Positions 8,031 to 35,549 of a DNA stretch of 64,000 nt are shown piece after piece (positions within the stretch are counted from its first letter, which is position 1; every line of letters starts with the position of its first letter). This stretch comes from a virus (Duplodnaviria > Caudoviricetes). Where the stretch lies: positions 34,257-98,256 of IMG/VR virus record IMGVR_UViG_3300001580_000011. One strand, given 5' to 3'. Below the pieces are notes generated by a model that saw only the letters and a program-made list of their open reading frames with translations, searched no databases and had not been told where the DNA came from. A program made the translations under genes and the position numbers.

Positions 8031-8210
8031 TCATCCATCCTCCGATTCTATATCGTCCAATTCCTTATCAAACTTCAAATATTCTAACATTTCCTCCATA
8101 TCTTTCATCATTTTCATAAACTCTTTTGACTTCCACCTATTGGTTATACCCATCTTATGGGGTTTACACATAGGGCAGGAATGTCTTTTTTTCTTTAGTC
8201 TTTTTCTCAT
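8031..8210 (-). CDS. Small hypothetical protein (CxxCKPHK motif)
   Basis: Manual translation MRKRLKKKRHSCPMCKPHKMG..., 59 aa, coupled to the upstream stop. Confidence 0.55.
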   Translation of the reverse strand: MRKRLKKKRHSCPMCKPHKMGITNRWKSKEFMKMMKDMEEMLEYLKFDKELDDIESEDG

Positions 8211-8884
8211 TACTCTACCTTGAACAAATCATCTGATAATTGTTTATTGACGATTTTTTTCTCTGGTTTTGGAACAGGACATCCTTCTTTTACCCACCTG
8301 ACAACACATTCATCTTGATAATATAATCTTCTTACGGCTTCTTTTTGCTCTGATGTTATTTCATTGTATTCATTAAATGATATAAAATCTGGCAGTGTTC
8401 TTTCTGCCCGTTCCCATCTCCCATTATATTCATTTATGGCATATGTAATCATATTGAATACACCTTCATTCACAATAATACCAATATTCCCGCAGGCCAT
8501 CATACCCGTATTCATAAAACAAATTTGTAATCTTCTTTCGGTATCAAACCAATGTGTTCCACTATCAGAGGATACTATCTGTATACCATTTGATGCCCGG
8601 TATCTTACGGGTATTTTTGTGCTAATCATCATAGCCATCATTGTTTTGACGGGGTTTTGACAATTCTCATCAAAATATAATGGTTCAGAGTAACTCCATT
8701 TTGTTGCTTCACATTCACAAATTATTTTTTCTCTCGGGGCTGTAACAAGGACAGGTGGTGTAAACTCTGGATTATATGCGTTGAAAATTCTATCATCAAT
8801 TGCCCTTTCATACTCATTTAACACTTCTTCCCATCCCTCTGGCATATTTTCTTTTGACCAATTATACTTTGTATATGTTGACAT
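8210..8884 (-). CDS. Hypothetical protein; distant EQSHR/ASNG-family member with C-terminal tag A
   Basis: YRASNGIQIVS...AINEYN; ends LSDDLFKVE. Confidence 0.7.
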   Translation of the reverse strand: MSTYTKYNWSKENMPEGWEEVLNEYERAIDDRIFNAYNPEFTPPVLVTAPREKIICECEATKWSYSEPLYFDENCQNPVKTMMAMMISTKIPVRYRASNGIQIVSSDSGTHWFDTERRLQICFMNTGMMACGNIGIIVNEGVFNMITYAINEYNGRWERAERTLPDFISFNEYNEITSEQKEAVRRLYYQDECVVRWVKEGCPVPKPEKKIVNKQLSDDLFKVE

Positions 8885-8992
8885 TATCTATACTCCCTTG
8901 CAACAATATCCTTATATGGTTTTTCTTTCTATGGATTTTATTCCAATTTTTCTTTTATAACACTTATTATTTATTTTATTTTTTATAGATGA

Positions 8993-9490
8993 TCATTTAT
9001 ATGTTCGTATCAATAAATCCGATTTCTCCATAATATATTCTGAGGGCCCATCATATCTATCAATAGAGGTAACAACAATTTCTCGTATACCAGAATTTAT
9101 AATGGACGATAAACAGTTTTTACAAGGAATAGAACAGGTTATATACATAGTAGTATCTTTAACACATACACCTATCCTTGCTGCATTTAAGATTGCGTTG
9201 ACTTCAGCGTGTACCGCGATACAGTATTGTAAACCTTCACCTGATTTGAAACCCATTACAAAGCGTGGACATTGGCCATTTTTATCCATAGGTAAGTTAT
9301 AATCTAATGTTTTATCTATCCCCCACCTTTTGTCACAAGTTGGAACGCCTCTTGGAATCCCGTTATACCCTGTAGAAATAATCGACTTGTCTTTGACGAT
9401 GATTGCACCAATCTTTCTTGACATACACTGTGAATTTTCACCTATAGTTTTCGCCACTTTCAAAAAATAACTATCCCAACGTTCCATCAC
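8993..9490 (-). CDS. dCMP deaminase
   Basis: STGYNG, HAEVNAI, PCKNC zinc motifs. Confidence 0.92.
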   Translation of the reverse strand: MMERWDSYFLKVAKTIGENSQCMSRKIGAIIVKDKSIISTGYNGIPRGVPTCDKRWGIDKTLDYNLPMDKNGQCPRFVMGFKSGEGLQYCIAVHAEVNAILNAARIGVCVKDTTMYITCSIPCKNCLSSIINSGIREIVVTSIDRYDGPSEYIMEKSDLLIRTYK

Positions 9491-9790
9491 TTACCACCTT
9501 CTATATCGGATTTTATATCTTTTTCCAGTATATCAATATCTCGATTAAGAATATAACTTATTTCACAGATAACATCGTTCATCATTTTATAAAGAAAATA
9601 TTTTTTCTCTTTATCACTATCCTCTAATAGATTGATGGTATTATATATTGATATTAATTCATTCATTTCTTCTTCTGCATATTTTTTCATACAATCCTCC
9701 ACGCAAAAATATATCCTATGATACAACCACTTTAAGTATACCATAGGATATATTGTTATGAAACTATTGTTTTATCTAACCGAATATTCA

Positions 9791-10591
9791 TCAATCATAC
9801 CGACTAACAACAGACATCGGTTGTGAGTTATAAAAGACATACTTGCAAAGTTTATTGACAGTATCCCGATCAGGTGTATGAGGAAGAACGGAATTTTCAT
9901 ACCATTTCTCAAAAAGTTTATCAAATTCCTCAACTCTCTGCATCAATTCCTCATATGACCATAATCCATTTCTAACCTGTAACAACAAATCTGCATCCGG
10001 TCTTGGAAATGTCATATGTCCGGTAAGAAGAAGCTCCTTACCTTCTGTCATCAACCTGTAAAGGTGCATGGCGTGTTTAGTATCATACCCAAACTTCTGT
10101 TCAAGAGCAAACCTTTTGGGATTACGGTTTTCTTTCCATAACATCCAAGCCTTCAATTCCTCTGTATCAAAAGGTACTTTACCAAGCAACCATTCCCTAT
10201 GGTTCTTCAACCTCTTGAGCTGTGCGTGAGCATAACCTGTGAAGGTATGCTTTGCCTTTGTAGAAAGAAAAGACTTTCTATGAAAAACAACATACTCCCA
10301 TAAGTCGGAAGTTGCAAGCCACATCTTTTTCGGGACAAATAATAATTCTACCATATTTGGATTACTATTTAAACATAATTTGAGAAACTTACGAAATTCA
10401 TAGTAAACTACGTCATTCATCTTATCTTCAAACTGCTCTGGCCCGCTTTCAAGGCCAACCCAGTAATCATCGGGAGACATAAAAACCCCTCGTTCATCAT
10501 AATCCGAATCGGGTGTATTGGTTCCATATAAATGAGAACCAGCAACCGTCCTATATAATAGCACAAAATTTTTTGGTAACGTAACAGTCAT
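9791..10591 (-). CDS. Pol-beta superfamily nucleotidyltransferase (RlaP/YcgL-like)
   Basis: GSHLYGTNTPDSDYDERGV, NPN..ELL, YDTKHAMHLYRL. Confidence 0.85.
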   Translation of the reverse strand: MTVTLPKNFVLLYRTVAGSHLYGTNTPDSDYDERGVFMSPDDYWVGLESGPEQFEDKMNDVVYYEFRKFLKLCLNSNPNMVELLFVPKKMWLATSDLWEYVVFHRKSFLSTKAKHTFTGYAHAQLKRLKNHREWLLGKVPFDTEELKAWMLWKENRNPKRFALEQKFGYDTKHAMHLYRLMTEGKELLLTGHMTFPRPDADLLLQVRNGLWSYEELMQRVEEFDKLFEKWYENSVLPHTPDRDTVNKLCKYVFYNSQPMSVVSRYD

Positions 10592-10825
10592 TGTATCACC
10601 AATTCCTTTATCTTGAAAACAATTTGTGTAATTTTTTGTCTTTCAAACGTAAGTTGATTCAACTTTATAAGAGTTTCTTCGGCCAAAATATAAGACTGGG
10701 CATCAAGAAGGTTTGTGAAGGCCCGGTCTATAATCGTCCGCTTTTCGCCAGCTTTTTTCAATTCCCTGTATACCAGATGTATCGTCATTCATATAAACCC
10801 CCTTCATTATTGTAAAGATATTTAT

Positions 10826-10854
10826 ATTATACCATATACTTTATATAAGGTAAA
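10826..10854 (-). promoter_or_regulatory. Early (sigma70-type) promoter
   Basis: TTTACC-17-TATAAT with extended TG on the minus strand. Confidence 0.6.
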
Positions 10855-10857
10855 TAA

Positions 10858-10892
10858 AGAAAAACCCAGTGTTTCCACTGGGTTCTCTTTTC
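10858..10892. terminator. Intrinsic terminator hairpin
   Basis: AACCCAGTG-TTTC-CACTGGGTT flanked by A/T runs. Confidence 0.65.
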
Positions 10893-10909
10893 TTCTATTC
10901 AGTTTTACC

Positions 10910-11119
10910 TTACTTCTTTGCTCGAATCTCTGCCAAAAGTGCTTCCAACTTTGCTTTTATATCAGCAGTAAGTTTTCCAGATTGTGCATCAGCGATGAGT
11001 TCATTAACCTTTGTTTCGGCATCGAGAAACCATTTCTTATTGTTTCTCCAAACAAAGAAAAATATCACGCCACTGACAGCTACGCCAGCACCAAAAGCAA
11101 TAATAACTTGTCCTTCCAT
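10910..11119 (-). CDS. Small single-TM membrane protein
   Basis: N-terminal hydrophobic helix; strong SD AGGAGG. Confidence 0.7.
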   Translation of the reverse strand: MEGQVIIAFGAGVAVSGVIFFFVWRNNKKWFLDAETKVNELIADAQSGKLTADIKAKLEALLAEIRAKK

Positions 11120-11801
11120 ATAAAACCTCCTTTTTATTAAAACTTTGAGGAAAATTTCCTCATAAATCTTTATATTATAAAAAAATACAAAATGTTAAAT
11201 TTTTTTTATAACAATCATACTTTTTGTAAACAATCGAAATAGGACAATAACTTTTTTTACCCCCCTATTTTGGAGTTAAAAAAGGTCAGTGTGTTTACAC
11301 ACTTACAACTTCTTGACAAACCCCCCTCTCCGTGTTATACTATCACCTATATTTATGATAAATAACATAATAAAAAAATATTTACAATCCCATTGAAACG
11401 TGTTACAATGGTATAAAATTATATTGTAATATGTAAGGCTAAGGAACAAGAATGAAAAAACTATGGTGTTTTTTATTTCATCGCTTCCATTGGAAATCGT
11501 TTCCTATTGGCGGCCTTGATGGTGGTATGAAAGATAGACAGATGTTTATCACTATAGGTGATATGGCTGTCTGTGAAAAATGTTATAGGGTATTTTTTAG
11601 ACCTATAAATGAATTTGGAAAGATGGAAAAAAATGAAAAAGTATCTTAAACCGTGGGAAATACAGACCATTGTAATAGGGATTATATCGGGTCTACTCGC
11701 TCTTCTTTGTAATTATTATCGACTACCTATGGTGTTTTGGGGGATAGGAATTTTTTCCGGTATCATTATTGGTTACTTACCAACAGAAAAGGAAATGAAA
11801 G

Positions 11802-12074
11802 ATGAGCAACGTGAAGAAAATTGATGAATGGCTGAAAGAAAAAGGTATTACGCTTGAGGATGCTGTTCAACTTGGTATCGCTCCTATATTACTTGAATGT
11901 AAGAAACGGGAAGCTGAACTGGAAGTTATTGAAAAACAGAATGAGGTTCTGATTACTGAATTGGATAATGTTCTCAACAAGATTAAAAGAGAATTAAAAG
12001 AAATGGATGATAATGCCCAAAGGCTCAAGGCCTTGGTTGAGTTTCAAGTAAAAGGGAGAACGTTTGACGCATGA
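11802..12074 (+). CDS. Coiled-coil hypothetical protein
   Basis: 90 aa heptad-rich ORF in an operon. Confidence 0.6.
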   Translation: MSNVKKIDEWLKEKGITLEDAVQLGIAPILLECKKREAELEVIEKQNEVLITELDNVLNKIKRELKEMDDNAQRLKALVEFQVKGRTFDA

Positions 12075-12301
12075 TTATTTGTCCGAAATGTAGAGGCCGT
12101 GTGGAGATCGTCGATACGGAAAAAGTGGATGCTCCTACTGGTAAGGGAAAAATGTTTATTCCCATCTATCAATGTCTTAAGTGTAAAAAATCTTTTACAG
12201 ACAGTGATGCAAAGAAAACACCTATGGAACAAGATATATAATCATAAATAATAATATGAAAAAAATAAAATCATATTTTATATATTTGTAAGAGATAACT
12301 A

Positions 12302-12622
12302 ATGTTTGACGATATTATAGGAAACCAAAATAAACCCTGCCGTTGCACACCATATATCAATATCAAGGTCACAAAAGGCGAGGTTGCTGAAACAAACACA
12401 TTGGGATATATCCTTATCATATACGTTGACCCAGCAAATGGTAAAATGTATTACCTTAAGTACATTACTAAAGAGAAATTCAATAGTGGTGATGAAGTTG
12501 AAATAGTTTTCGAAGATTTGAATAAAGGACCTCATATAACACAAATTTGTGAACGATGGACAATAGACAATAAAACACAAGATGATATATGTGTTGAAGA
12601 AGTAAGAAAGGTGAAAAAATGA
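12302..12622 (+). CDS. Hypothetical protein with N-terminal MFDDII motif; paralog of 13871
   Basis: YVDPANGKMYYLKY...DEVEIVF matches YVDISNGKTYNIKY...DPVEIVF. Confidence 0.7.
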   Translation: MFDDIIGNQNKPCRCTPYINIKVTKGEVAETNTLGYILIIYVDPANGKMYYLKYITKEKFNSGDEVEIVFEDLNKGPHITQICERWTIDNKTQDDICVEEVRKVKK

Positions 12623-12802
12623 AAAAGATGGAACCAAAAGAAGACACGTTTATTTCATTACAATTGATTGAAGAAGGTTCGGGAGAATATATCACGACAT
12701 TGAACCTGACATTCGATCAGACGATTAACCTTTTGCAATTCGCTATCGTTAGAGGACTAAAAGATCAAATCAAATTTATAGAAGAAAACAAGGAAAAAAA
12801 AG

Positions 12803-13039
12803 ATGTTTGACGACCTTATTATTCCCAAAAAAGCGATGAAGGTAACGCAGCGGAAAAAAAAAGATGGAATTGATCTTTCCGGCGCCACTTCTCCAATCGT
12901 TCAAAACACAGCATCACCTTGTCAAAAATGTAATTCAACAGACCTAATAATATTAATGCACCATCTAAACCCATATACAGGACGTAAAGAGTTTTTTGTT
13001 GAATGTAAAATGTGTGGACATCAGTATTGGTCGCTATAA
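12803..13039 (+). CDS. Zinc-ribbon protein with N-terminal MFDDLI motif
   Basis: CQKC...CKMC. Confidence 0.65.
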   Translation: MFDDLIIPKKAMKVTQRKKKDGIDLSGATSPIVQNTASPCQKCNSTDLIILMHHLNPYTGRKEFFVECKMCGHQYWSL

Positions 13040-13067
13040 AGACTAATATAATTGCAATTTTCGTTTA

Positions 13068-13096
13068 TTTACATCTTACTAATAATTTGATATAAT
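13068..13096 (+). promoter_or_regulatory. Early promoter
   Basis: TTTACA-17-TATAAT with extended TG. Confidence 0.65.
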
Positions 13097-13591
13097 AATC
13101 ATTAATGTATGGTTTTTTAAAATGTGAAAGGATTATTAATATGAAAACTGTTGAAATTAAAAAATATGTTGAAGCTATTAATGAGCTTCATACTGAATTT
13201 GTAAAGTCCACCAACCTCATTGAAAAACATAGATTTGCTGTAGCACTTAGCATTATGGCAGATCAACTTATGTTAGCCCTATCACCAATCATAAACGCTA
13301 AAATAATAAAACCGGGAATTATTGTAGAAGATTATTTACCAAATGATCGTCCACCTACACCTCAAAAGACAGCGAAAATATATCAATTCAAGGAAAAAGA
13401 GTGATATGTACTGGTTTGTACTTTTTCTTATAGGTATGTGCACATTTTCTACAGCAGTATTCCTTACTGTAATGTTCTCATGGCTACCATCGTGGTTTCC
13501 ATATCTTACGATAACCGTAATACCCGGAACGTTCATTGTAGATCATCTTGTTAAAAGGAAAAGAAATGTGTAGATCAATGTTCGATCTCGA

Positions 13592-13867
13592 TTGCAAGAA
13601 AAAAAGAAATGGTGTACTATAAACAATACATATGATATGTTTCCAGTAGGAACAAGGGTTCACGTTGTTACGGCCTGTCAGGATTTCAATTTCTTTTATG
13701 ATGAAACTGGTTTTGTAACCAAGAACACAGGTGAATATCTCGGTATCACCGTAACGTTTGATGAAAAAAGGGAATTTACCAACGGGGATGTCCAAACTAG
13801 TTTTGGATTTAATCCCGATGATTTATTTCCATTAGACATACCAAATAAACTATTTGAAGTGGAGTAA
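13592..13867 (+). CDS. SH3-like hypothetical protein with tag A
   Basis: FPVGTRVHV...; ends IPNKLFEVE. Confidence 0.65.
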   Translation: MQEKKKWCTINNTYDMFPVGTRVHVVTACQDFNFFYDETGFVTKNTGEYLGITVTFDEKREFTNGDVQTSFGFNPDDLFPLDIPNKLFEVE

Positions 13868-13870
13868 AAA

Positions 13871-14218
13871 ATGTTTGAAGATATTCTTGGACCAAATAAA
13901 TCGAATATGACCGATACCTCTGCCAGACATGGATGCGGCCGTCCTAGGCTAACGTGTAATGGTAAGTGTAATGGAATAGATGTTGATGGCCAACATATTT
14001 ATTTCAATTATGTAGATATAAGCAACGGTAAAACATATAATATCAAATACCGTTGGCCGGATGCTATTATGAAAAAAATGTTCGTAAAAGACGACCCGGT
14101 TGAAATAGTGTTTTATGATGGTAAATTCAAAAATGTTTCAATACAAAAGTGCCGTCGGCTGGATATTCGTAGTAAAAAATGGGATTTCATTGATATACAG
14201 GATATTATAAAACGATGA
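13871..14218 (+). CDS. Hypothetical protein with N-terminal MFEDIL motif
   Basis: Paralog of 12302. Confidence 0.7.
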   Translation: MFEDILGPNKSNMTDTSARHGCGRPRLTCNGKCNGIDVDGQHIYFNYVDISNGKTYNIKYRWPDAIMKKMFVKDDPVEIVFYDGKFKNVSIQKCRRLDIRSKKWDFIDIQDIIKR

Positions 14219-14577
14219 AAAAAATTCTCAAAATAAAAAGTATATCCGCACCGAGCAAAATATATAAATATATTACATTCCAAATTATAGAACAATCACA
14301 TCGAGGTTCTAATTTTGGTGACGAATCATCTGATTTCTCGGCTTCTAACGGTATTGTTTTGGCATCTTCCTTGTTCCCGCAGATAGGATATACAGCATTT
14401 TATGTGCGTGGAACAAACCACGATGAAGACGATAAAATATTGAAAACTACATCTAAAACTTTTGAGAGAATTCAATTTGCCATACAAGAATATAATAATT
14501 TCTTTAATGGAAAGAAAATTTCTATCGGACAAGACGATTATATCAAAAGGATAGGTATCTCATATAACGATATTTAA
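14215..14577 (+). CDS. EQSHR-family protein with tag B
   Basis: IIEQSHRG..ASNG..FYVRG..AIQEYN; GQDDYIKRIGI near the C-terminus. Confidence 0.75.
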   Translation: MKKILKIKSISAPSKIYKYITFQIIEQSHRGSNFGDESSDFSASNGIVLASSLFPQIGYTAFYVRGTNHDEDDKILKTTSKTFERIQFAIQEYNNFFNGKKISIGQDDYIKRIGISYNDI

Positions 14578-14867
14578 GTATGTCATAGTAAGATTTTACT
14601 ATTGGAAATACCCACGGATATATTTTGGGCCATAATCATCGGCCGATGGAAAACAGAAAAAACTTTTATAAAAAGTGTATCGAGCATTAGTAGTGGTAAT
14701 GAAAAAATGTAAACACGTATATCAAATAGAAAAACATGGAAAATATTTTCTCGTAAAATGTATAAAGTGTAGACAAAGATTGTTTTGTGAACATTTTTCA
14801 GAAAAATATTTAATATGTGATGATTGTATAAACATTCTTCGTAAAAACATTTTAAAAGGAAAGTATT

Positions 14868-15137
14868 ATGATTAATAAAAACAAAGAAATGAGAGCAGGT
14901 TGGATACATGAATTTTATATATCGTCAACGGCCACACATCCTTACCTCTATTATATTCCGGTAATATTTACGGATACGGTTATTCTTTATACGGAAAACG
15001 GGATAAGTGAAATTGGTAAATACAAAATAAGTGAAGTAGAAAAATCTTATTATAAAATTATTCCTATAAAAAAATTCGATACAGCTGAACCAAAAATTGG
15101 GCAGGATGAATATCTTAAAAGAATGGGCATAAGGTAG
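14868..15137 (+). CDS. Hypothetical protein with tag B
   Basis: Ends GQDEYLKRMGIR. Confidence 0.7.
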   Translation: MINKNKEMRAGWIHEFYISSTATHPYLYYIPVIFTDTVILYTENGISEIGKYKISEVEKSYYKIIPIKKFDTAEPKIGQDEYLKRMGIR

Positions 15138-15211
15138 TATAATTTTATAAAATATTTTCTACTGTTAACCAAAAGATACATATAACACACCGTTTTTACT
15201 CATCTTTTCTT

Positions 15212-15241
15212 GTTTACATATACCTTCAACTATGATATAAT
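15212..15241 (+). promoter_or_regulatory. Early promoter
   Basis: GTTTACA-17-TATAAT (T4 early-like). Confidence 0.75.
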
Positions 15242-15264
15242 ATCTCATATTTGGAGGTTTAATC

Positions 15265-15654
15265 ATGAAGAAAGAACACGCTGAAAAATTATTGAAGGAT
15301 TTTCCCTATCAGTTTTCGTACTATCACGATCACACAAAACCCATGATGCCAATGGTATTTGGATTTGAGTGTGGTGATGGTTGGTATGAGATCATTTACA
15401 ATCTCACCAAGAAATTATCGGAAGTATCGCCCACTACAAAAGTAATGCAAGTCAAAGAGAAGTTTGCTGGCCTACGTTACTATGTCGATTCATGTAATGA
15501 AGAAGGTTTCGAATTGATTAATCAAGCAGAAAAATTATCGTATAAAACCTGTGAAAATTGTGGTTCGATGGAAGATGTAAAAATAAGAGGAAAATACTGG
15601 GCACAAACCCGTTGTGAAAAATGTAAAGACGTTTCAGCGAGGGATACGAGATGA
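15265..15654 (+). CDS. Conserved phage hypothetical protein
   Basis: ECGDGW..QVKEKFAGLRYY..CENCG..C..C, a pattern common in large phages. Confidence 0.75.
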   Translation: MKKEHAEKLLKDFPYQFSYYHDHTKPMMPMVFGFECGDGWYEIIYNLTKKLSEVSPTTKVMQVKEKFAGLRYYVDSCNEEGFELINQAEKLSYKTCENCGSMEDVKIRGKYWAQTRCEKCKDVSARDTR

Positions 15655-15690
15655 AAGTAAAATCTTTGATACAAAGAGGTCATTGGGTAT

Positions 15691-15978
15691 ATGATACAAA
15701 AACCGAAAAATCAAAAACCATTGAATGGTGAATCATATCTGACAGCTAAGATTGTGACTTCCAAATATTCTACATTTTGGTATGAAAGGGAAATAGGTGA
15801 ATTGTATTATATTTGTCCTACAAGACGACAACATCGTCCATATCGTAATGGAGCTCCCGGTGATTGGTATTATGAGGTAATAGGCCCCTTTGCCAGTAAA
15901 AGATTTTTATTGGAACGCGATATTGAAATAGTTGTATTAGATGAATATAAAATTCCAGAAGAGTTATTTGAAATATGA
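15691..15978 (+). CDS. Hypothetical protein with tag A (start uncertain)
   Basis: Ends IPEELFEI. Confidence 0.65.
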   Translation: MIQKPKNQKPLNGESYLTAKIVTSKYSTFWYEREIGELYYICPTRRQHRPYRNGAPGDWYYEVIGPFASKRFLLERDIEIVVLDEYKIPEELFEI

Positions 15979-16187
15979 AAACAAAAGTGAGATATATTGG
16001 TGATAAGGACTGTTGGGGATTTGTACAAAATTTCATTTATGATGTAACAGATATTGACGAGTTAAGCGGTAATATATTACCATATTGGATTGTTTTGAAT
16101 AGTGGTATCAGAGCATCTGGTATGGCTTTCATGAAAGAAGATGCTGTGATCGTATCAATAATTCCAGACGAGTTATTTGAAATATGA
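15975..16187 (+). CDS. Hypothetical protein with tag A
   Basis: Ends IPDELFEI. Confidence 0.7.
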   Translation: MKTKVRYIGDKDCWGFVQNFIYDVTDIDELSGNILPYWIVLNSGIRASGMAFMKEDAVIVSIIPDELFEI

Positions 16188-16539: not shown

Positions 16540-16797
16540 ATGAAAAAGATATTTCAAATGAACATAACCGATTCAAACTTGAAAAAAATTGGAAAATACA
16601 AATATGATAAATTTGTACAGGATTATAGAAGATGTGGTGGCAGGTTTTATGTGTTCAATGACCAAATTGGAAACAGTGTAATATATGTGGAAAGATCATA
16701 TGACCCAAAATTATACTGGATTGTGATGAAGAAAAATGGTATGCTCATTGACGTGCCTATAGAAGTTACACTGGATGGAGGTCTATTTGAGATATGA
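16540..16797 (+). CDS. Hypothetical protein with tag A
   Basis: Ends LDGGLFEI. Confidence 0.65.
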   Translation: MKKIFQMNITDSNLKKIGKYKYDKFVQDYRRCGGRFYVFNDQIGNSVIYVERSYDPKLYWIVMKKNGMLIDVPIEVTLDGGLFEI

Positions 16798-16983: not shown

Positions 16984-16995
16984 AAAGAACGAATT

Positions 16996-25985: not shown

Positions 25986-26035
25986 AAACCCCTATCCCAC
26001 AGGTCTTCGGATGTCTGGCAGATAGGGGTTTTTTT
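25986..26035 (+). terminator. Intrinsic terminator
   Basis: AACCCTATC...GATAGGGGTT followed by a T run. Confidence 0.6.
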
Positions 26036-27180: not shown

Positions 27181-27425
27181 GGTTATAAAAAAATTGCTGG
27201 GCCGGGAAAATATATTATAGGGGAGATTAATATGTCTGTAAGAACAAAAAACCGTATTATAGGATGGTGTTTGATCGGTATTCCAATCCTGATCGTAACA
27301 ATTCTTCTAATGATTGAATTTGGATCTGTACCGGTATTACAATTCATAGCTGGATTTGGTGCTATCGTAATAGGTATTACGATGGTTGCTGTAGGTATAT
27401 TATATATATCGGGAGAGTATGATAA

Positions 27426-27758: not shown

Positions 27759-28138
27759 TGTTGGAATGGTTGTTGATAGCTATTGTAATATTGGTTATAC
27801 TGATATTATATTTGGATAATCGGATAAACAAATGAAAAGATATTTTATTCCCGATAAACACGGTGTACCGTGGACGGATGCTTTTCGTGAGGATATGGAT
27901 CGACAGGGATGGAAGGCGGAGATTATAAGTGAGTATCATTTCGATACTTTCGATATATATCGTACGGAAGAAAGTAAAAAAAAGTATAAGACGATTGGAG
28001 TGTTAATAAAAAATGTGGTAAAATAATTGTAGAGGAAATTCGAATAATAGACGATAATAGAGAAATGAAAAGAGAATTATATATAAAGCTTGTTTCTTGT
28101 AGTGTATTTATTGTGCTTGGTTTCTTTGATCGTAAACA

Positions 28139-28570
28139 ATGAGTTGTTTGAAAAATAAAAAATTGCCGGCGGCGGGAAATTTTGAAAATGGGGAGTTTAC
28201 GCTTTTTATGAAAAAGAATTTGAAAATAGCATGGATATCGAAATCTGTCGATAGTGTAGTGTTTCGGATTATTGAACAATCTCACCGGAACGATGATTTT
28301 TCAAATCTGTTGGAAACGGAGCCGAATGAATATCTTTGCCCGGATACGAAGTTAAGGATTATTTCCTGTAGTATGCCTGAGTGGGATACGATTGGAAAAA
28401 TCCTTTTTGTTCGAGGTTCAGATAGACGACATGACAATGATGAAATGTTGGTTTCTGTAAAAGAATTCGAAAAAATTGAAAAAGCGGTGGAGAATTACAA
28501 TCGAGAACATAATGGGTTTGAACCGTTAAAAATAGATTGTTTACAGGACGATCTTTTTATAATAGAATAA
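28139..28570 (+). CDS. EQSHR-family protein with tag A (true start probably the ATG at 28208)
   Basis: IIEQSHR..PEW..LFVRG..AVENYN; ends LQDDLFIIE. Confidence 0.75.
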   Translation: MSCLKNKKLPAAGNFENGEFTLFMKKNLKIAWISKSVDSVVFRIIEQSHRNDDFSNLLETEPNEYLCPDTKLRIISCSMPEWDTIGKILFVRGSDRRHDNDEMLVSVKEFEKIEKAVENYNREHNGFEPLKIDCLQDDLFIIE

Positions 28571-28576
28571 AAGAGA

Positions 28577-28891
28577 ATGGTTTCGTCTTTCGGGGCTATC
28601 TCTGTTGGTGCGAAAAAGACGACAATAGGTGGTTTTCTCGTGGAAAAAAAGACATATATAGTGAAATATATAGGAAATCGTATGGGCGATATAATGACTT
28701 CGAAATGGACCGGTAGTCTTTTTCTGGTGACGGACGGGGGAGCTTCATGGAATATTGTAGACGTTCTCCATTATGAAAACCCGTTCGAACTGGACCGCCA
28801 GGGGGACAACTCGTTTTTTAAATTCAATGCAGAAGTCGTTCAAGGTTATACGATGGTTGAATTGGAAGACGATTTATTTAAATTGGAATAA
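28577..28891 (+). CDS. Hypothetical protein with tag A
   Basis: Ends LEDDLFKLE. Confidence 0.7.
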   Translation: MVSSFGAISVGAKKTTIGGFLVEKKTYIVKYIGNRMGDIMTSKWTGSLFLVTDGGASWNIVDVLHYENPFELDRQGDNSFFKFNAEVVQGYTMVELEDDLFKLE

Positions 28892-28987
28892 TATATGGAA
28901 ACGTTTATTTTTTTATTTTTATCGGCAGCGGCAATTATAACCGTTATTATCTGTATGTTTTTTGACGAATAGAAGGGAACGGATATT

Positions 28988-29197
28988 ATGGTAAGAATAT
29001 GTGAAAGAGTGAATAGTTGTCGCGTGGGCGATAATTGTCCAATTGGTGCTGGGTCTCGACATGAATGTGCCGGAACTCCGTTTTTTTGTGATGTAATATA
29101 TGCACGAGTATCCTGTATTATCGCTCCCGATAAATTAAAAAAAGAACCTATATTCGGTAACGATGAATATCTTAAACGAATGGGAATAGTAGAATAA
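28988..29197 (+). CDS. Cys-rich small protein with tag B
   Basis: Six Cys; ends GNDEYLKRMGIVE. Confidence 0.7.
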   Translation: MVRICERVNSCRVGDNCPIGAGSRHECAGTPFFCDVIYARVSCIIAPDKLKKEPIFGNDEYLKRMGIVE

Positions 29198-29199
29198 TC

Positions 29200-29481
29200 A
29201 TGACGAAAAAGTTTATTATAAGATACAAATATAGTCCTACCGATTTAATTTTTATTTGTACGAAGCAAATCAGAACGGAAATGGACCTTTATCGTAAAAA
29301 AACAGTGGAGATTTGGAAATATTGTGTTGAAAGGGAAATAACTCCCGGCTATGAAGGCAGTACGCGATATAGCAATGTAGAATTTAGATTGAACGATACA
29401 TTATGTACCGTCGAACCCTATAAAAAAAATGCAATTGACGATTTCTATCAAGACGATTATTTGAGAAGGATCGGTCTATGA
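29200..29481 (+). CDS. Hypothetical protein with tag B; paralog of 29478
   Basis: IFIC.K..EITP; ends QDDYLRRIGL. Confidence 0.7.
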   Translation: MTKKFIIRYKYSPTDLIFICTKQIRTEMDLYRKKTVEIWKYCVEREITPGYEGSTRYSNVEFRLNDTLCTVEPYKKNAIDDFYQDDYLRRIGL

Positions 29482-29735
29482 AATATCTTGTAATTTATAA
29501 CTGGAAAATCCATAACGATAGAAAATCTCTTTTCATTTGTGTTAAAAAAAATAATTGTTTTATTATCGAAGACGATATAACGCCGGATGGAAATAATTAT
29601 TATGGTGGACAGGGAAATCGTTTTGTCGGCCATAAAATTAATGATTTTTCAGAGTATATTGTAGCAGTAGAGAAATATAATGAAATTAAATGGGAACTGG
29701 ATGAAGATAATTATTTGAGAAGGATTGGCTTATAA
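29478..29735 (+). CDS. Hypothetical protein with tag B
   Basis: LFICVK..DITP; ends EDNYLRRIGL. Confidence 0.7.
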   Translation: MKYLVIYNWKIHNDRKSLFICVKKNNCFIIEDDITPDGNNYYGGQGNRFVGHKINDFSEYIVAVEKYNEIKWELDEDNYLRRIGL

Positions 29736-30064
29736 TGAGAGAATATATTGAAATAGAAGTTATTGAGATAACCAAAAAAACTGCACTTGTCCGTATAAAA
29801 AAACAGTCACGTAGAAATTTTGTTTGGGAATCGAAAAGACATCCTGGATGTAGACTTCAAGCAGATTTTTTTCCAGATATTCATATTATAAATGAGAGAA
29901 AAAAATTATTTGTTTTTTATTTAAGAGGCCGTACCGTCAGGCGCGATAATACCGATATTTGGATGCCTCGATGGGCATATAATATTTTAATAGATATGAT
30001 AATGGAGTATAACTGTATTTCAGAAGAAATTTTTTTATTGGATGAAAAATTATTTAAAATATGA
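29735..30064 (+). CDS. EQSHR-family protein with tag A
   Basis: IKKQSRR..FYLRG..MEYN; ends LDEKLFKI. Confidence 0.7.
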   Translation: MREYIEIEVIEITKKTALVRIKKQSRRNFVWESKRHPGCRLQADFFPDIHIINERKKLFVFYLRGRTVRRDNTDIWMPRWAYNILIDMIMEYNCISEEIFLLDEKLFKI

Positions 30065-30117
30065 AAATCGACTGAGCGGGTATTTTTGAATAATGTTTTA
30101 AAAGGTGGATAAAAAGA

Positions 30118-30483
30118 ATGCAAGTGAATAAGAAAACATATTTGTATATTTGTGAGGAAACAGAGTGTTCTCTTCATAAGACATGTGGATACGGTATACC
30201 TCATGTTTGTAAGAGGTCACACGTTTGTCATTATTGTTATTCTTTAAGAAAAGAAGTTAATTGTATTCCTTCTTCACAAAAGATAACTTATGTGAGGTGT
30301 GTGGAAGCTAGATCATGTAATAGGTCAAGAGGTCGTTGTAGATTAGCGGTTCCCGATTTTCGAAGGACGCATTATCAAACCTGTCCTTATGATAATAATA
30401 TAAAAATTTCATTTGAGGAATACGATACCGATTTATTGGAAAGAAATTCCGACAATGAATATTTAAAAAGAATGGGATATTGA
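30118..30483 (+). CDS. Cys/His-rich protein with two repeats and tag B
   Basis: Ends DNEYLKRMGY. Confidence 0.7.
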   Translation: MQVNKKTYLYICEETECSLHKTCGYGIPHVCKRSHVCHYCYSLRKEVNCIPSSQKITYVRCVEARSCNRSRGRCRLAVPDFRRTHYQTCPYDNNIKISFEEYDTDLLERNSDNEYLKRMGY

Positions 30484-30484
30484 T

Positions 30485-30826
30485 ATGACAGAAAGAAAAT
30501 ACATAAAATTGGATATTATTTTACGGACATATTTCGAGGTAAAATTTAAGATATCGGAACAATCACATCGAGGTCCTGTCTTTGTCGATCCGCTGCAAAA
30601 AAATTTTAAAGCATCTAATGGTATAATATTGATATCGGATGATATGCCAGAATGGAGGGCGTGGCCGAAAATCTTTTTTGTAAGAGGGAAGCAAAAAAAC
30701 GGTGATAATAATGTTTTGTCCTGTTCTATAAACGATTATACTCATATAAATGAGGCTATAGAGGAGTATAATAAGTCGTTTGCCACTTTTAATATTATTT
30801 TTAATGAGGATTTGTTCACAATATGA
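30485..30826 (+). CDS. EQSHR-family protein with tag A
   Basis: ISEQSHRG..ASNG..PEW..FFVRG..AIEEYN; ends NEDLFTI. Confidence 0.75.
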   Translation: MTERKYIKLDIILRTYFEVKFKISEQSHRGPVFVDPLQKNFKASNGIILISDDMPEWRAWPKIFFVRGKQKNGDNNVLSCSINDYTHINEAIEEYNKSFATFNIIFNEDLFTI

Positions 30827-31038
30827 GAACAAATATAAGAAAAGAGGCGGTTCAATGTGAGTTTGCAAATGTCTGTACGCATTCATGCATACATGGAGCA
30901 AAGTGGCCTCATGCCAAATCTACATCGTGTTTGGGGTTTACTTGTGATGTTATACATCAAAAAGTATGTTGTGTTTTTGTGAAAGTCGATAGTGTGAGTG
31001 CAGTTGATGAATACCTCAAAAGGCTTGGCCAAGATTGA
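30823..31038 (+). CDS. Cys/His-rich protein with tag B
   Basis: Ends VDEYLKRLGQD. Confidence 0.7.
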   Translation: MRTNIRKEAVQCEFANVCTHSCIHGAKWPHAKSTSCLGFTCDVIHQKVCCVFVKVDSVSAVDEYLKRLGQD

Positions 31039-31049
31039 TTTACAGTCTA

Positions 31050-31078
31050 TTTACAAATATGTGAAAAGGTGTTATAAT
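31050..31078 (+). promoter_or_regulatory. Early promoter
   Basis: TTTACA-17-TATAAT. Confidence 0.65.
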
Positions 31079-31843
31079 ATGATTATGAGATTATACAGAT
31101 GTACAAAATTTACAAAAGATTGTTATCCTTGTGATCATAGGTATCGACATTCCTATAATTCAGGTACTTGCTCGACAACCTGCCAACACGATAAGGAAGC
31201 AAAATGTGAGTTGTGTGAGGGTGATATGTATATAAATGAAAAGCGTGACATGGCTCTTGCTGAGGCAAGAGAAGAGAAGTATCTTGATCGTATGGGTAAA
31301 TCTATCGAAGATATTACTCAAATATTAAGAGAACAGGATACGTCAACATGGGAGGGGTTTGGTGCCCTTTTACATTGGGCAAGAGAACAGGATTGGTGGA
31401 ACGATTTTCTTGAAGAAAATGGTATGGTTATTCAGAAAGTTGTTGACGGTGATACCGAACCTGCTATTTTTGAGTATTTCCCCGTAACTCTTATGGACCC
31501 GGATGAATTTGCTGATGCTATTTCGGCCTATCTGGACGAGTTAAATGAGCAGAAAGAAAAGGACCCGACAGACGATAATGATGAAAGTGGAGGGGAGAGT
31601 ACAGAAGTTACTGAACCGCCTGAATCTAATATTTTTTTAGGTTCATGTAGTGGAAAAGTATGGTCAAATTGCATAAAAGAAAAGTGTGATCATTATTTGG
31701 ATCACGATATTACAAATTGTAAGTCATTTTATTGTCATAATATAAAAAGAAGTGTGTGGTGTGTTACTGTAAAAAAAACTATAACGGAATCTCAACGGAT
31801 TGGTGGTCATGCAAAAGATGTCTGGAGTACAAGTAATTTGTAA
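31079..31843 (+). CDS. Multidomain protein with two Cys/His-rich domains and an internal tag-B-like segment
   Basis: EEKYLDRMG after the first Cys domain; acidic linker; start placed after the promoter. Confidence 0.65.
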   Translation: MIMRLYRCTKFTKDCYPCDHRYRHSYNSGTCSTTCQHDKEAKCELCEGDMYINEKRDMALAEAREEKYLDRMGKSIEDITQILREQDTSTWEGFGALLHWAREQDWWNDFLEENGMVIQKVVDGDTEPAIFEYFPVTLMDPDEFADAISAYLDELNEQKEKDPTDDNDESGGESTEVTEPPESNIFLGSCSGKVWSNCIKEKCDHYLDHDITNCKSFYCHNIKRSVWCVTVKKTITESQRIGGHAKDVWSTSNL

Positions 31844-32060
31844 TGCAATGAAGGAAAATTTATGTAAAAATAAAGGTCCTTTATGCAGTCACGCCGTTCC
31901 TCATTTATCAAGTGAATGTATTAGATTGGATGCTTCAAACGACTGTATTTTTTCAAATTATAAAATACATGAATGCTTTCCAATTACTGTAGGAACCGCA
32001 TTTTGTGTTGAGTGTGAGGATATATTATTAACGGATTATATGAAAAGAATAGGAATATAA
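31800..32060 (+). CDS. Cys/His-rich protein with tag B
   Basis: CSHAVPH; ends TDYMKRIGI. Confidence 0.7.
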   Translation: MVVMQKMSGVQVICNAMKENLCKNKGPLCSHAVPHLSSECIRLDASNDCIFSNYKIHECFPITVGTAFCVECEDILLTDYMKRIGI

Positions 32061-32671
32061 TGAATCACAATACAAGAGAAATACACGATCCTAAATTGAA
32101 AGAACAGCTTGATGGTATTGATTTTTCCAATGCAAAACCATTCAAAGATGTTATTGAAGAATTGGAATATGAAATGGCTAATAGGTCATGGTATAAAAAA
32201 GCATGGGATTGGATTTGGTTCAAGACCTTTTATCATTTAACCCCAACCCAGCTTCAATGGTATAAAACTCAAGTAGAATGTTATTTTCACCGTGGTAAAC
32301 ATGGTTGGTCTTACATGGATACATGGGGATATGACCGATATCTTGCACAGGTTATTTCCGGTGGTGTAAAGAATATTCGTAAAAATACTTATGGGCATCC
32401 TTGTGATTGTGAGGAAGAACAGTGGAACGATATCCTCGACAAGATTGCCTTTACTTTTGATCTTGCTATTCGAGTACATGAAGAAGACCTTATATTGCTT
32501 CTTCGCGAAGATTTTGACAATGAAGAGAATTTCCTTGCACAAAAAGAACGTTATATCAAATTGTCAAAAGAAAATCCGGATTTTTGGAAGATTGTATCCG
32601 ATGAAGATACGGTGAAATATAAAGAAGGCTGGAGATTATTCGAACGGTATTTTTTTTCATTGTGGGTTTAG
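32060..32671 (+). CDS. Conserved phage hypothetical protein
   Basis: DTW..D.YLA..W..ILDKI..F..EG..LF..YF..LW pattern. Confidence 0.7.
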   Translation: MNHNTREIHDPKLKEQLDGIDFSNAKPFKDVIEELEYEMANRSWYKKAWDWIWFKTFYHLTPTQLQWYKTQVECYFHRGKHGWSYMDTWGYDRYLAQVISGGVKNIRKNTYGHPCDCEEEQWNDILDKIAFTFDLAIRVHEEDLILLLREDFDNEENFLAQKERYIKLSKENPDFWKIVSDEDTVKYKEGWRLFERYFFSLWV

Positions 32672-32674
32672 GAT

Positions 32675-33061
32675 ATGAAAAGGACATTATTCATTCTATT
32701 TGCAACTCTTATTATATTTTTACTTGTATTTCAAACATACTCCCAGGCGCAGGAAAGGTGGGTTACTATTGCTGAGGATAAATCCAACGGAAGGCTGGCT
32801 GTTGAAGTAACTACTTATGATCCCTTGAAGGGCGCGTGGTTTCTTTTCGATAAAAGAGATAAGAAAAAAATTATTCGAATTATAGAGGAAAAAGAAAACA
32901 TGGCTGTTTGCTTCAATGCATGCATTGAGAACGATGTTTTCTATACTTTACAGGAAAAACAGTGTGCAATTATTTCACAGGGTACGGTTGCTGAAACAAT
33001 TTTTATGTCTTTATTAGTCATAAGAAATGAATATGAAAAACGGAAAGGTATAAAAAAATGA
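32675..33061 (+). CDS. Secreted hypothetical protein
   Basis: Signal peptide ending SQA. Confidence 0.6.
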   Translation: MKRTLFILFATLIIFLLVFQTYSQAQERWVTIAEDKSNGRLAVEVTTYDPLKGAWFLFDKRDKKKIIRIIEEKENMAVCFNACIENDVFYTLQEKQCAIISQGTVAETIFMSLLVIRNEYEKRKGIKK

Positions 33062-33366
33062 TATTGGTAATGTACATTATAGGGTTTATGATAGGAATTT
33101 TATTTTATTGGTTATCTTCTATTATAGGGTCATTATGGCTGCAAATAGTTTTATTTCCGATTATATTTTCTGTGGGTTATTTGATAGCCTGTGGAATGTT
33201 TTATAAATTTTCGAAATAGGGTTTCGCAAAGCAACAGTGTAATATATTTCATTCTTCTGTAGAAAGGGGGTAGCAGACTATGCCGTCCCTCTTTCTTTGC
33301 GTATTTACATTTTATGTAAAATGTAGTATAATATGAATAATTATAAGTAAAAAGGTAAATAATATT

Positions 33367-33600
33367 ATGGGTAAAAAATTGTATTATGAAAGACCGATTG
33401 TTGTATATTGTTACACCTGCCGAGAATGGTATTATGAAAAGAAAGTTGAATTCATCAATATCGAAGAAGGCATACAGGGTGAAGATATCCTTACTTTCAA
33501 GTGCCCTGTTTGTTCGACAGTCAATTCCTCTAAGTTTGTTCGACAGTCAATTCCTCTAAGTTTGTTCGACAGTCAATTCCTCTATAGAGGAATTGGATGA
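33367..33600 (+). CDS. Zinc-ribbon protein whose C-terminus is altered by a tandem repeat
   Basis: CYTC..CPVC; contains a 26-bp unit three times. Confidence 0.6.
   Translation: MGKKLYYERPIVVYCYTCREWYYEKKVEFINIEEGIQGEDILTFKCPVCSTVNSSKFVRQSIPLSLFDSQFLYRGIG
33508..33584. repeat. 26-bp tandem repeat, three copies
   Basis: GTTTGTTCGACAGTCAATTCCTCTAA. Confidence 0.92.
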
Positions 33601-33848
33601 TGTGTAATGAAACAAGGATGGGTTTGGGTCGCCACAACCTATTATACAGTCGGTGTGAATATTATAGATGATGTTATTACTTATGCACCACCTATAGTAA
33701 AATGGGCAAAGGGTAAAAAATTATCAGAGTATAAATCATATCTTGAAAGAAAAGGTGTTCTTGTTGAATGGAAAGAGTATGAAGAAAAAAATAAGTGATA
33801 CCAAAAAATGTAAAAATAAAATGTATGATGTATAAAGGAGTATGACAA

Positions 33849-34349
33849 ATGAAGAAAGCCTATATTATGCTGATACTTGGGGTATTATGCCTCATGTATA
33901 CAGTACATGACTTTTATTCTATCTTGCCAATACCTGTTTTTGTAATAGATGATCCTATTATGGCAAAATCAGAAGAAATGCTGAGATATGCTGGTTGTCC
34001 AGAGAAAAAAATTCCGATACTGGCTCATGCTGTCTCAACGGCATCAAAATCTACAGATGGAGAAATTTCTCCAGCACTTATCGTAGCTCTGGTAAGAACG
34101 GAGTCTACATATAAGTCGGATGCTATATCGTCAAAAGGTTATAAAGGTTTGATGCAAACACCGAAAGCAACGTTTGAATATGCTGATGTCGATATCCTTT
34201 ATGGTGTTCGTATATTGAGGGACAAGATTCGTATTGCAAATGGGAATCTTGAATTGGCTCTGGCACTTTATAAAGGTGGAAATAATCCAGAGGCAAAACG
34301 TTATGCAAAACAGACGATGAATCTGTATATGCAACTAGCAATGAAATAG
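33849..34349 (+). CDS. Lytic transglycosylase (SLT domain) with N-terminal anchor
   Basis: ALVRTES, AISSKGYKGLMQ, ALALYKGG. Confidence 0.88.
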   Translation: MKKAYIMLILGVLCLMYTVHDFYSILPIPVFVIDDPIMAKSEEMLRYAGCPEKKIPILAHAVSTASKSTDGEISPALIVALVRTESTYKSDAISSKGYKGLMQTPKATFEYADVDILYGVRILRDKIRIANGNLELALALYKGGNNPEAKRYAKQTMNLYMQLAMK

Positions 34350-34797
34350 GAGAATGTGTTGTGGAAAAGAAAATTGATTCAACAGTAGTAAAGATGGTAA
34401 AGGAGAACAGGGTAATGAGAAATATAATTGATTGGATTCATAAACAGTTACTTTTTGTCATTACAATTACTTTTATTTTCGGAGCTTGTGCCGGATTATA
34501 TGGTGGAAAGATGATATACGAAAATAAGCTTGGTGAGGCCGTGAAAATTGGTGGGGCCGTACTCGAAAACAAGGTATATGACGTAAAGATGAGGCCGTAA
34601 TTTACATCGCAATAAATATTTATTATAATAGGAGAGTGTCAAATGTCATATAATTATGATCCTTGTGATGATTGTGATTGGGATGATTGTGAAAATTGTT
34701 ATGAGAGAGAATATAAAGAAGAGTTTGCCCAAATTCAGAGGGATGAAGCAATCTCAAAAGGCGATGATCCTATAATTTTTTCAGAGGACTTGATGGA

Positions 34798-35139
34798 ATG
34801 AAACGGTTGGTTTTTGAATGTAAAGTAAAAGGTTCAAATTTAGAACAGTATGAAGTTCGTATAATAGAACAAACCCATCGCTGTTTGGAATTTGGTACTC
34901 ATAACGATACTTTTGTTGCTAAAAATGGAATAAAATTTCAATCTGTTGGTTGCCCTCAATGGAAACCACGCAATAATCTTTTGTATGTTCGTGGATATGA
35001 AAGAAACAAAGACGATCAATCCTTTATTGTTTCCATACTAGATTATAAAAAGTTATTGAATGCTATGAAAGAGTATAATGAGACTTTTAAAATTCCAATG
35101 TCACATGTTTTAGATGATAATTTATTTGAGGTGCAATAA
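34798..35139 (+). CDS. EQSHR-family protein with tag A
   Basis: IIEQTHR..AKNG..PQW..LYVRG..AMKEYN; ends LDDNLFEVQ. Confidence 0.75.
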   Translation: MKRLVFECKVKGSNLEQYEVRIIEQTHRCLEFGTHNDTFVAKNGIKFQSVGCPQWKPRNNLLYVRGYERNKDDQSFIVSILDYKKLLNAMKEYNETFKIPMSHVLDDNLFEVQ

Positions 35140-35549
35140 TGACATTACGCCGTAATTATTATAATGTTACATCTGGACAAAATGATGAATCAAATAAGAC
35201 GCCCATCTTTCTTTCTATTAAAGAACCTATTATAATTGAAGGTGTTGAGTTTTTCCCGTTTGTTGCATACGGTAAGGGGAGAATTTTTACATCTGTTATT
35301 ATTGAACAGGATGGAAGACAACAGCAATATGATGTTATTACTGCATCGTTCACAGGGTTTTCCAAAGACCAGATGAAACTTTTTATCCGTGGAACTTATC
35401 AAAGAAAAAAAGGTTCTGTAGGTATGTTTGTTGAAAAGAACGATCTGAATTTGATTGTCGAAATTATAAAGCAATATAATGAAATATTAGGACATAGTAC
35501 TATTATACCAGACCCAAATATTCTCGATAAGGAGCTGTTTGAAATATGA
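35139..35549 (+). CDS. Divergent EQSHR-family protein with tag A
   Basis: IIEQ..LFIRG..IKQYN; ends LDKELFEI. Confidence 0.7.
   Translation: MTLRRNYYNVTSGQNDESNKTPIFLSIKEPIIIEGVEFFPFVAYGKGRIFTSVIIEQDGRQQQYDVITASFTGFSKDQMKLFIRGTYQRKKGSVGMFVEKNDLNLIVEIIKQYNEILGHSTIIPDPNILDKELFEI

Follow-up and report, generated by a model that had tools for sequence, protein, structure and literature searches.

A C-terminal peptide tag shared by small proteins of an uncultured T4-related phage: a candidate sliding-clamp docking signal

The clamp-binding ends of the phage T4 proteins gp43, gp55 and gp33 have been described as 'hydrophobic and acidic', as interchangeable, and as sitting on a divergent, unstructured linker (PMC2988020). 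In the public records these proteins end in SLDFLFG (gp43), SLDFLYEAND (gp55) and TLDFLL (gp33), and the gp43 protein of RB69 ends in ASLFDMFDF; the C-terminal 11-mer of the latter has been crystallised on the clamp. Here we describe a peptide of comparable form, denoted tag A, which closes 11 small proteins encoded on a 64,000-nucleotide stretch of phage DNA (the window; bases 34257-98256 of the linear IMG/VR virus record IMGVR_UViG_3300001580_000011, 98,256 bp). T4 already provides the precedent for such an element. The novelty lies in how widely it is distributed, over a dozen ORFans per genome, in its interchange with a second tag (tag B) within the same families, and in its reappearance in several lineages of uncultured phages; a search of the literature returned no description of such a spread. 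The sequence comparisons described below suggest, with a probability of roughly 0.5, that tag A is a sliding-clamp interaction peptide distributed over many accessory proteins, and that the hub to which it docks is the gp45-family clamp of the phage itself.

All 11 open reading frames (ORFs) that had been predicted to carry the tag were recovered, with their C-terminal ends, in a six-frame scan of the window (Table 1). The coordinates by which they were originally listed, and by which we call them here, are those of the ORF starts (of the ORF end for the minus-strand ORF 8210) and not the positions of the tags. The consensus reads [L/I/F]-[P/D/x]-[D/E/K]-[D/E]-L-F-[E/K]-[I/L/V]-(x)-COOH: in every case L-F is followed by one free residue, by I, V or L, and then by zero or one residue up to the stop. 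The Leu is encoded by TTA, TTG, CTA, CTT or CTG and the Phe by TTT or TTC, in agreement with the original prediction; since this variation is wholly synonymous at both positions, selection must act at the level of the protein. The enrichment of the motif at C-termini over what composition predicts, the absence of which would have overturned the original prediction, is clear as well. Among the 187 ORFs of the 98-kb record the expected number of C-terminal matches is 0.31 on the basis of composition and 0.35 on the basis of the internal frequency of LF-x-[IVL], versus 11 observed (Poisson P ~2e-13, or 3.5e-5 when only 5 independent families are counted). The tagged genes are laid out in two plus-strand arrays of small genes (13.6-16.8 kb and 28.1-35.5 kb), with one further gene on the minus strand at 8210.

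A profile of the tag was derived from 29 instances on four phage contigs, with positions counted from the Phe (0). Upstream it has L, I or F at -5, P (19) or D (5) at -4, E, D or K at -3, E or D at -2 (22/29) and L (25/29), M or W at -1; the Phe is present in 29/29 and is followed by E (23) or K at +1, by I (22), L or V at +2 and by an optional residue at +3. In all 11 ORFs and all 29 instances the extreme C-terminus is thus a short peptide of hydrophobic and acidic residues. The T4 and RB69 epitopes share this property, together with the flexible and divergent linker, the transfer between unrelated proteins and a centre of [L/M/I]-[F/Y] behind an Asp or Glu; in both cases the genome also encodes a gp45-family clamp with a gp44/62 loader. 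They differ in the exact wording of the peptide ([S/T]-L-D-F-L-[F/Y/L] versus [L/I]-P-[D/E]-[D/E]-L-F-E-I for tag A) and in the number of clients: three are known in T4, whereas here the tag is found on 11 or more small ORFans per genome, among them an expanded paralog family, and gp55 lacks the epitope. The tag is not a PIP box of the type recognised by PCNA (Qxx[ILM]xx[FY][FY]), as it has a single aromatic residue (F), no conserved Gln and another spacing.

The bearers of the tag had been proposed to belong to several unrelated families, which is correct for part of them only. ORFs 28139, 29735, 30485, 34798 and 35139 are clear paralogs (BLAST 1e-4 to 1e-17; hhalign probability 99-100% with the tags cut off) and share a domain that we label EQSHR after a conserved sequence block. 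ORF 8210 is probably a distant sixth member, as its similarity to the EQSHR core suggests (hhalign 52%, E 1.5e-4, tag removed). For ORFs 13592, 15691, 15975, 16540 and 28577, on the other hand, the hhalign probability against the EQSHR domain is at most 0.2% (tags removed), and these five bearers have no detectable link to the family. Tag A is thus borne by one expanded family and by at least three or four other small proteins without detectable relationship. Pfam and PHROGs yielded no functional match for any of the tagged window ORFs that were scanned (10 of the 11), nor for the tagged proteins of three other phage contigs or genomes (G001, L011 and L017). No homolog of the ORF 28577 protein was present among 5.8 billion proteins, and a protein-pattern scan of IMG/VR with the ORF 35139 protein retrieved nothing. 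The EQSHR fold had no counterpart in the PDB at E <=0.001 by Foldseek; the best VIA-align hits (Z 5.3, on PH/FERM-like beta sandwiches) lie within the background, and the ESM Atlas gave nothing usable.

The tail behaves as a module apart from the domain to which it is attached. In the AlphaFold 2 model of the ORF 34798 protein (based on 20 homologs; mean predicted local distance difference test score, pLDDT, of 87) residues 1-100 form a confident beta-sheet-plus-helix domain with values of 85-97, whereas residues 101-113, which include the tag, score below 50. The family alignment agrees with this division: the EQSHR domain closes with a conserved EYN helix, after which a linker of variable length and sequence leads to the tag. 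In eight ortholog pairs 58/64 tag residues are identical, versus 54/96 in the 12-residue linker. Three metagenomic orthologs of ORF 34798 (P0005-7; 49-55% overall identity) have kept 8/8 residues of the tag DDNLFEVQ, and orthologs of ORF 35139 (P0014, P0015, P0017 and P0018) have kept 5-8 of the 8. In ORF 8210 the tag follows some 65 residues after the EYN helix, and its ortholog P0020 (57% identity) ends in LSDDMFKVE behind a linker that has diverged. Moreover, the presence and the type of the tag vary within families. The EQSHR homologs P0003, P0008, P0012 and P0013 are untagged and others carry either tag A or, as in ORF 14215, which is a clear member of the family, tag B; likewise, cysteine-rich proteins carry tag A in a related phage (L011) and tag B in their relative in the window, ORF 30118 (E 0.001). 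The low pLDDT, the conservation of the tag over that of the linker and the tag swaps are what is seen for a T4-type epitope on a divergent, unstructured and transferable linker. Judged from the alignments and the model, tag A is a short linear motif in behaviour and not a structural strand of one family, a reading that had been named as one that would overturn the original prediction; the modelled disorder and the five bearers without detectable relation both speak against such a strand.

The search of related phages that had been suggested as a check showed that the tail recurs. On a 3-kb contig of a related phage (L011) 8 of the 10 called genes end in [L/F/I]-P-[K/E]-x-[L/M]-F-E-[I/L]; three of these encode EQSHR proteins and most of the others cysteine-rich proteins of ~65 aa. 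The exact DNA pattern for [D/E]-E-L-F-E-I-stop was found at four loci in IMG/VR, one of which lies in a phage genome of 161.6 kb (G001, 71% complete) that has 10 tagged ORFs scattered genome-wide and a clamp that belongs with that of the window phage to one family (E 1e-72). The same pattern was found at 40 loci in a metagenome collection, and the in-frame loci include clusters of tagged genes (8 of 40 ORFs in L156, 6 of 29 in L150). As a control, 21 loci with out-of-frame matches to the pattern contained no tags in 259 ORFs. Extension of the tail to accessory proteins is limited to certain lineages, because in a jumbo phage of 349 kb (G005, 97% complete) the tail is found solely on the DNA polymerase.

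Indeed, the same ending is found on replication enzymes. A family-B DNA polymerase of 889 aa (L019; PF00136 1e-39, exonuclease domain 7e-21) ends in NSTFEELFEI, the last residues of which (FEELFEI) agree with the tags residue for residue, and a primase-helicase-type protein of 795 aa with BT4734_N and DUF5906 domains (L143) ends in QQEELFEI. The cultured relatives of the L019 polymerase, from the phages Phosso and Atu_ph07, end in TFNDLFTF and DFADLFGF, respectively, and ~70 of the 80 related polymerases in IMG/VR end in NTF-x-x-LF-x-[W/F/I]-(x). The tails of this clade of T4-related jumbo phages (Phosso, Atu_ph07 and the ~80 IMG/VR relatives) thus share with tag A the arrangement LF-x-hydrophobic-(x)-COOH after polar or acidic residues, and differ from it in the upstream Phe at -4 and in the residue at +2, which is mostly Trp or Phe; their role in clamp binding is one that we infer from T4 and RB69. 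Since the form of the polymerase tail (LF, one residue, a hydrophobic residue, and zero or one residue to the end) is that of tag A, it provides the decisive lead toward a clamp-docking role for the latter.

It could be argued that no hub exists, and that the tag is a by-product of gene overlap or of the ribosome-binding site of the following gene, or else the inherited last strand of one divergent family. In six of the 11 ORFs the final ATA TGA overlaps the following ATG, in all 11 the following gene starts within 10 nt, and the acidic codons fall where purine-rich, Shine-Dalgarno-like sequence is enriched (across the genome, positions -13 to -8 before starts are enriched in G); five or six of the 11 are, moreover, paralogs. 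However, the L-F codons, located at -6 to -11, contain no G in a region that is enriched in it across the genome, with the Leu varying synonymously over five codons, and the polymerase genes share the ending without the overlap context. On these grounds the ribosome-binding-site origin of the L-F core was rejected. The inherited strand is difficult to reconcile with a tail that is modelled as disordered and that in ORF 8210 lies ~65 residues past the end of the domain, with homologs that are untagged or carry tag B, and with the five bearers for which no family relation is detectable. We consider an explanation without a hub extremely improbable.

The phage is a distant relative of T4, as its primase shows 28% identity to T4-type gp61, and it encodes the components that clamp docking of the tag would require. 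On an assembly of this phage that extends further (137,036 bp), the genes for RNase H, gp32, gp44, gp62 and the clamp are located just past the right end of the window, the clamp and its gp44/62 loader at ~13 kb, in line with a T4-type system. The clamp gene matches phrog_223 (processivity factor; E 3e-9) and adjoins the genes for gp62 (PF16790) and gp44 (Gp44_lid). Its product was modelled by AlphaFold 2 as a two-domain protomer (pLDDT 97), for which Foldseek returned solely sliding clamps, with probability 1.00. A search of the 98-kb record with PF02916 (gp45) gave no match; the clamp is encoded on the longer contig, and its sequence is too divergent for this profile. That the clamp is the receptor, as well as the role that the tethered proteins would have there, we infer by analogy with T4. 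In such a mechanism, tag A would be appended through a flexible, fast-evolving linker to small accessory proteins of several folds, among them the expanded EQSHR family and the cysteine-rich mini-proteins. On replicating DNA the tag would probably hold these proteins at the hydrophobic pocket of a sliding clamp, or let them compete for it; the most probable receptor is the gp45-family clamp encoded together with the gp44/62 loader.

The docking peptide of the gp43/gp33/gp55 type that had been proposed is thus supported in its core, by the disorder, the conservation, the tag swaps and the form of the polymerase tails, though not in the view that all its bearers are unrelated. As for the hub, which had been proposed to be the clamp, RNA polymerase, a protease or the packaging machinery, the evidence favours the sliding clamp and disfavours the last two. 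Several observations weigh against the clamp. A dozen clamp clients among small ORFans are without precedent in T4, and the jumbo phage G005, a sampled member of the polymerase clade, combines the polymerase tail with an absence of tagged accessory proteins, so that such a tail alone does not imply tagging. The L019 polymerase was retrieved by means of this very peptide, and its exact identity to the tags is therefore partly a matter of selection, although the clade-wide LF-x-hydrophobic ending is free of that effect. The polymerase of G001 ends in RMIDSIFG, which is T4-like and not identical to LPEELFEI, in spite of the 10 tagged ORFs in that genome. Counted from the Phe, tag A has its upstream hydrophobic residue at -5, and the polymerase tails have theirs at -4. 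Finally, the phage's own DNA polymerase was not found on the 98-kb record or on the portions read of the 137-kb contig. A complex prediction of the clamp trimer with the last 37 residues of the ORF 35139 protein had a score of 0.01 and counts neither way.

The tag might also dock on the beta sliding clamp of the host (DnaN), by which the phage would take over the replisome of the host or block it. Binding of host DnaN by phage proteins has precedents in Staphylococcus phages, and the core x-[D/E]-[D/E]-L-F resembles the bacterial pentapeptides Q-x-[S/D]-[L/M]-F. The bacterial motif (QL[S/D]LF; QADMF/QADLF) shares with the tag an acidic residue followed by L/M-F, a frequently C-terminal position and many clients, and the [S/D]-[L/M]-F core is reflected in the tags by E/D at -2 in 22/29, by L or M at -1 in 27/29 and by the invariant Phe. 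ORF 28139 has QDDLF and the L143 protein has QEELF, and PDB entry 4k3o is entitled 'E. coli sliding clamp in complex with AcQADLF'. Nevertheless, the Gln four residues before the Phe, which is the hallmark of the bacterial motif, is present in only 1 of 29 tags; the others include 19 with Pro and 5 with Asp at this position. The tags furthermore carry two conserved positions past the Phe (E, then I/L/V) that the bacterial motif lacks, and the tagged lineages have clamp and loader genes of their own. Docking on the host clamp is therefore, in our opinion, rather unlikely.

A further candidate receptor is another hub of the replisome or of transcription, such as a partner of the gp32 tail (helicase, loader or polymerase) or RNA polymerase, where the tag would mimic that tail or compete with it. 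The gp32 protein of the phage ends in EDADLLKELDEL (last residues DADLLKELDEL) and that of T4 in DLDDLLNDL, and an acidic D-L-[L/F] core is common to both and to the tag. The acidic amphipathic segment ADDLDAF of gp32 binds the Dda helicase (PMC11551737), and the presence of the tag on a primase-helicase-type protein, which is not a classical clamp client, would fit such a partner as well. The acidic tails of SSB, gp32 and gp2.5 have in common with the tag their hydrophobic tip and their use as docking handle in the replisome, but there one hub protein bears the tail for many partners, whereas here many proteins bear it. The tip of SSB (D-D-D-[I/L]-P-F-COOH) ends in the Phe, which in every tag is followed by 2-3 residues; the tails of gp32 are extended acidic tracts, whereas the tags are compact 8-mers in which the Phe is nearly invariant, and the closest match in form is to the polymerase tails and not to those of gp32. 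We regard this type of hub as unlikely.

C-terminal peptides are classic degrons, and the tagged genes are small ORFans within early-type arrays. The tag could accordingly be a degron or a sorting signal, recognised by a protease adaptor, the capsid or an export system, by which early proteins are removed or relocated at a set time. The same tail on a replicative family-B polymerase and on a primase-helicase-type protein is ill-suited to such a signal, be it for degradation or for packaging, and no protease was found among the annotated proteins. Several tags, moreover, end in Glu or Gln, unlike the non-polar degrons that are known in bacteria. This makes a degron or sorting signal very improbable.

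Under docking on the phage clamp, the gp55 homologs deserve attention. The late sigma factor gp55 is encoded upstream of the window, and the homologs in this phage, in G001 and in a third genome, G002, (G000:C1:16218-16631, L039 and L040) are only 137-152 aa long and stop before the region that holds the clamp-binding epitope in T4 gp55. Because gp55 of this lineage lacks the T4 epitope, replacement of gp33 by a tagged protein is conceivable: at least one tagged small protein may, speculatively, have taken over a gp33-like bridging role. A search of the three genomes with T4 gp33 found no homolog, an empty answer that carries no weight.

Two further enzymes have ends that resemble those discussed above. 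In the window phage, ~9-11 kb past the right end of the window, a glycosyltransferase-like protein (phrog_7162, 4e-28) with a LAGLIDADG intein inside it ends in a sequence like the polymerase tail of RB69; judged from this sequence it may be a clamp-tethered DNA-modifying enzyme. In G001, a DNA methyltransferase (phrog_67, 3e-79) has a tag-like end (Table 1).

Among the tag A genes there are 6-7 small proteins that carry another C-terminal motif, [D/N]-[D/E]-Y-[L/I]-[K/R]-R-[I/M]-G-x(1-6), which we call tag B. The two are interleaved: the eight successive genes from 28139 to 30826 carry, in this order, A, A, B, B, B, A, B and A. Outside this phage, a tag-B-like string was found only in the gp55 homolog of G001, which has DDYFRTKGI close to its C-terminus; this likeness may serve as a lead. 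The idea that tag B represents the gp55 clamp epitope was rejected, since this tail region of gp55 aligns with a segment of T4 gp55 (segment 3) other than the epitope. We tentatively propose, as a possible but doubtful extension, a system of two addresses, in which members of the same families would be sent to the sliding clamp by tag A or to a second hub by tag B. If so, a large and fast-evolving set of accessory or counter-defence proteins would be placed on the replicating phage DNA.

Table 1. Features discussed in the text. Positions without prefix are those of the window; a prefix names another contig.
Feature	Position	Strand	Length	C-terminal end	Remarks
Tag A ORF	8210-8884	-	224 aa	...LSDDLFKVE	EQSHR-like core (...AINEYN), ~65 residues more, then the tag
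Tag A ORF	13592-13867	+	91 aa	...NPDDLFPLDIPNKLFEVE	Tag follows a second, internal DDLF copy (motif twice in tandem); no EQSHR relation; no Pfam or PHROG match
Tag A ORF	15691-15978	+	95 aa	...KIPEELFEI	Last 6 residues equal to the C-terminus of the L019 polymerase
Tag A ORF	15975-16187	+	70 aa	...IIPDELFEI	Only weak likeness to ORF 15691 (E 0.03)
Tag A ORF	16540-16797	+	85 aa	...TLDGGLFEI	No EQSHR relation
Tag A ORF	28139-28570	+	143 aa	...CLQDDLFIIE	EQSHR family
Tag A ORF	28577-28891	+	104 aa (83 aa from later start)	...ELEDDLFKLE	No homologs found
Tag A ORF	29735-30064	+	109 aa	...LLDEKLFKI	EQSHR family
Tag A ORF	30485-30826	+	113 aa	...IIFNEDLFTI	EQSHR family; compare Phosso polymerase, ...TFNDLFTF
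Tag A ORF	34798-35139	+	113 aa	...VLDDNLFEVQ	EQSHR family; modelled as folded (1-100) and disordered (101-113)
Tag A ORF	35139-35549	+	136 aa	...NILDKELFEI	Divergent EQSHR member
Tag B ORF	14215-14577	+		tag B	EQSHR family
Tag B ORF	14868-15137	+		tag B	
Tag B ORF	28988-29197	+		tag B	
Tag B ORF	29200-29481	+		tag B	
Tag B ORF	29478-29735	+		tag B	
Tag B ORF	30118-30483	+		tag B	Cysteine-rich
Tag B ORF	32675-33061	+		tag B	
Clamp gene	L007:17141-17890	-			
gp55 homolog	G000:C1:16218-16631				G000 is the 98-kb record
Glycosyltransferase-like protein	L007:13603-15801	-	732 aa	...ASLSLFDKKIPF	Compare RB69 polymerase, ASLFDMFDF
DNA methyltransferase	L030:18225-19499	+	424 aa	...NVINELFL	In G001
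Sugar-modification cluster	721-7369	-			
Four tRNA-Arg genes	50913-52264	+	1.4 kb		
Ribonucleotide reductase, large subunit	60887-63970	-	1115 aa on the longer contig		Runs past the window
Stretch without called gene	L016:5750-7900		~2 kb		On the 137-kb contig, beyond the clamp loader

In large phages, the majority of the small early genes lack a known function and offer no handle for study. If the tail marks about a dozen proteins per genome for one hub, a single peptide pull-down would identify that hub, and the tagged proteins would become a defined 'clamp toolbelt', or else a group of competitors for the clamp. The T4 model of the clamp as a hub for three proteins would then be extended to a far larger and rapidly evolving set of clients, and phages would appear to spread short docking motifs by tail swaps, much like eukaryotic viruses do. 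To our knowledge, a client network that relies on short docking peptides of this sort has not been described for any phage. The peptide can, in addition, be used to mine phage genomes, as the simple DNA pattern already gave multi-tag clusters in several uncultured phages.

The record from which the window derives is estimated by CheckV to be 38% complete, and the G+C content is ~34%. The window was found (>0.9 of the sampled words) only in runs from one 'hydrocarbon metagenome' study, and there is no RNA dataset among the sequencing runs listed as containing it. A comparison of the cultured-phage collection with the window (megablast) and with the ORF 34798 protein (tblastn) gave no match. Besides the tagged genes, the window contains a cluster for sugar modification (radical SAM/SPASM protein, methyltransferase, cytidylyltransferase, three glycosyltransferases and a class IV aminotransferase), located downstream of the tagged ORF 8210 and of a dCMP deaminase gene. 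Further to the right there are four closely spaced tRNA-Arg genes with the anticodons TCT, CCT, TCG and ACG, the first of which is unusually long (97 nt), and at the right end the large subunit of ribonucleotide reductase, which contains a LAGLIDADG intein. Finally, a stretch on the longer contig that has short ORFs only may hold a non-coding RNA.

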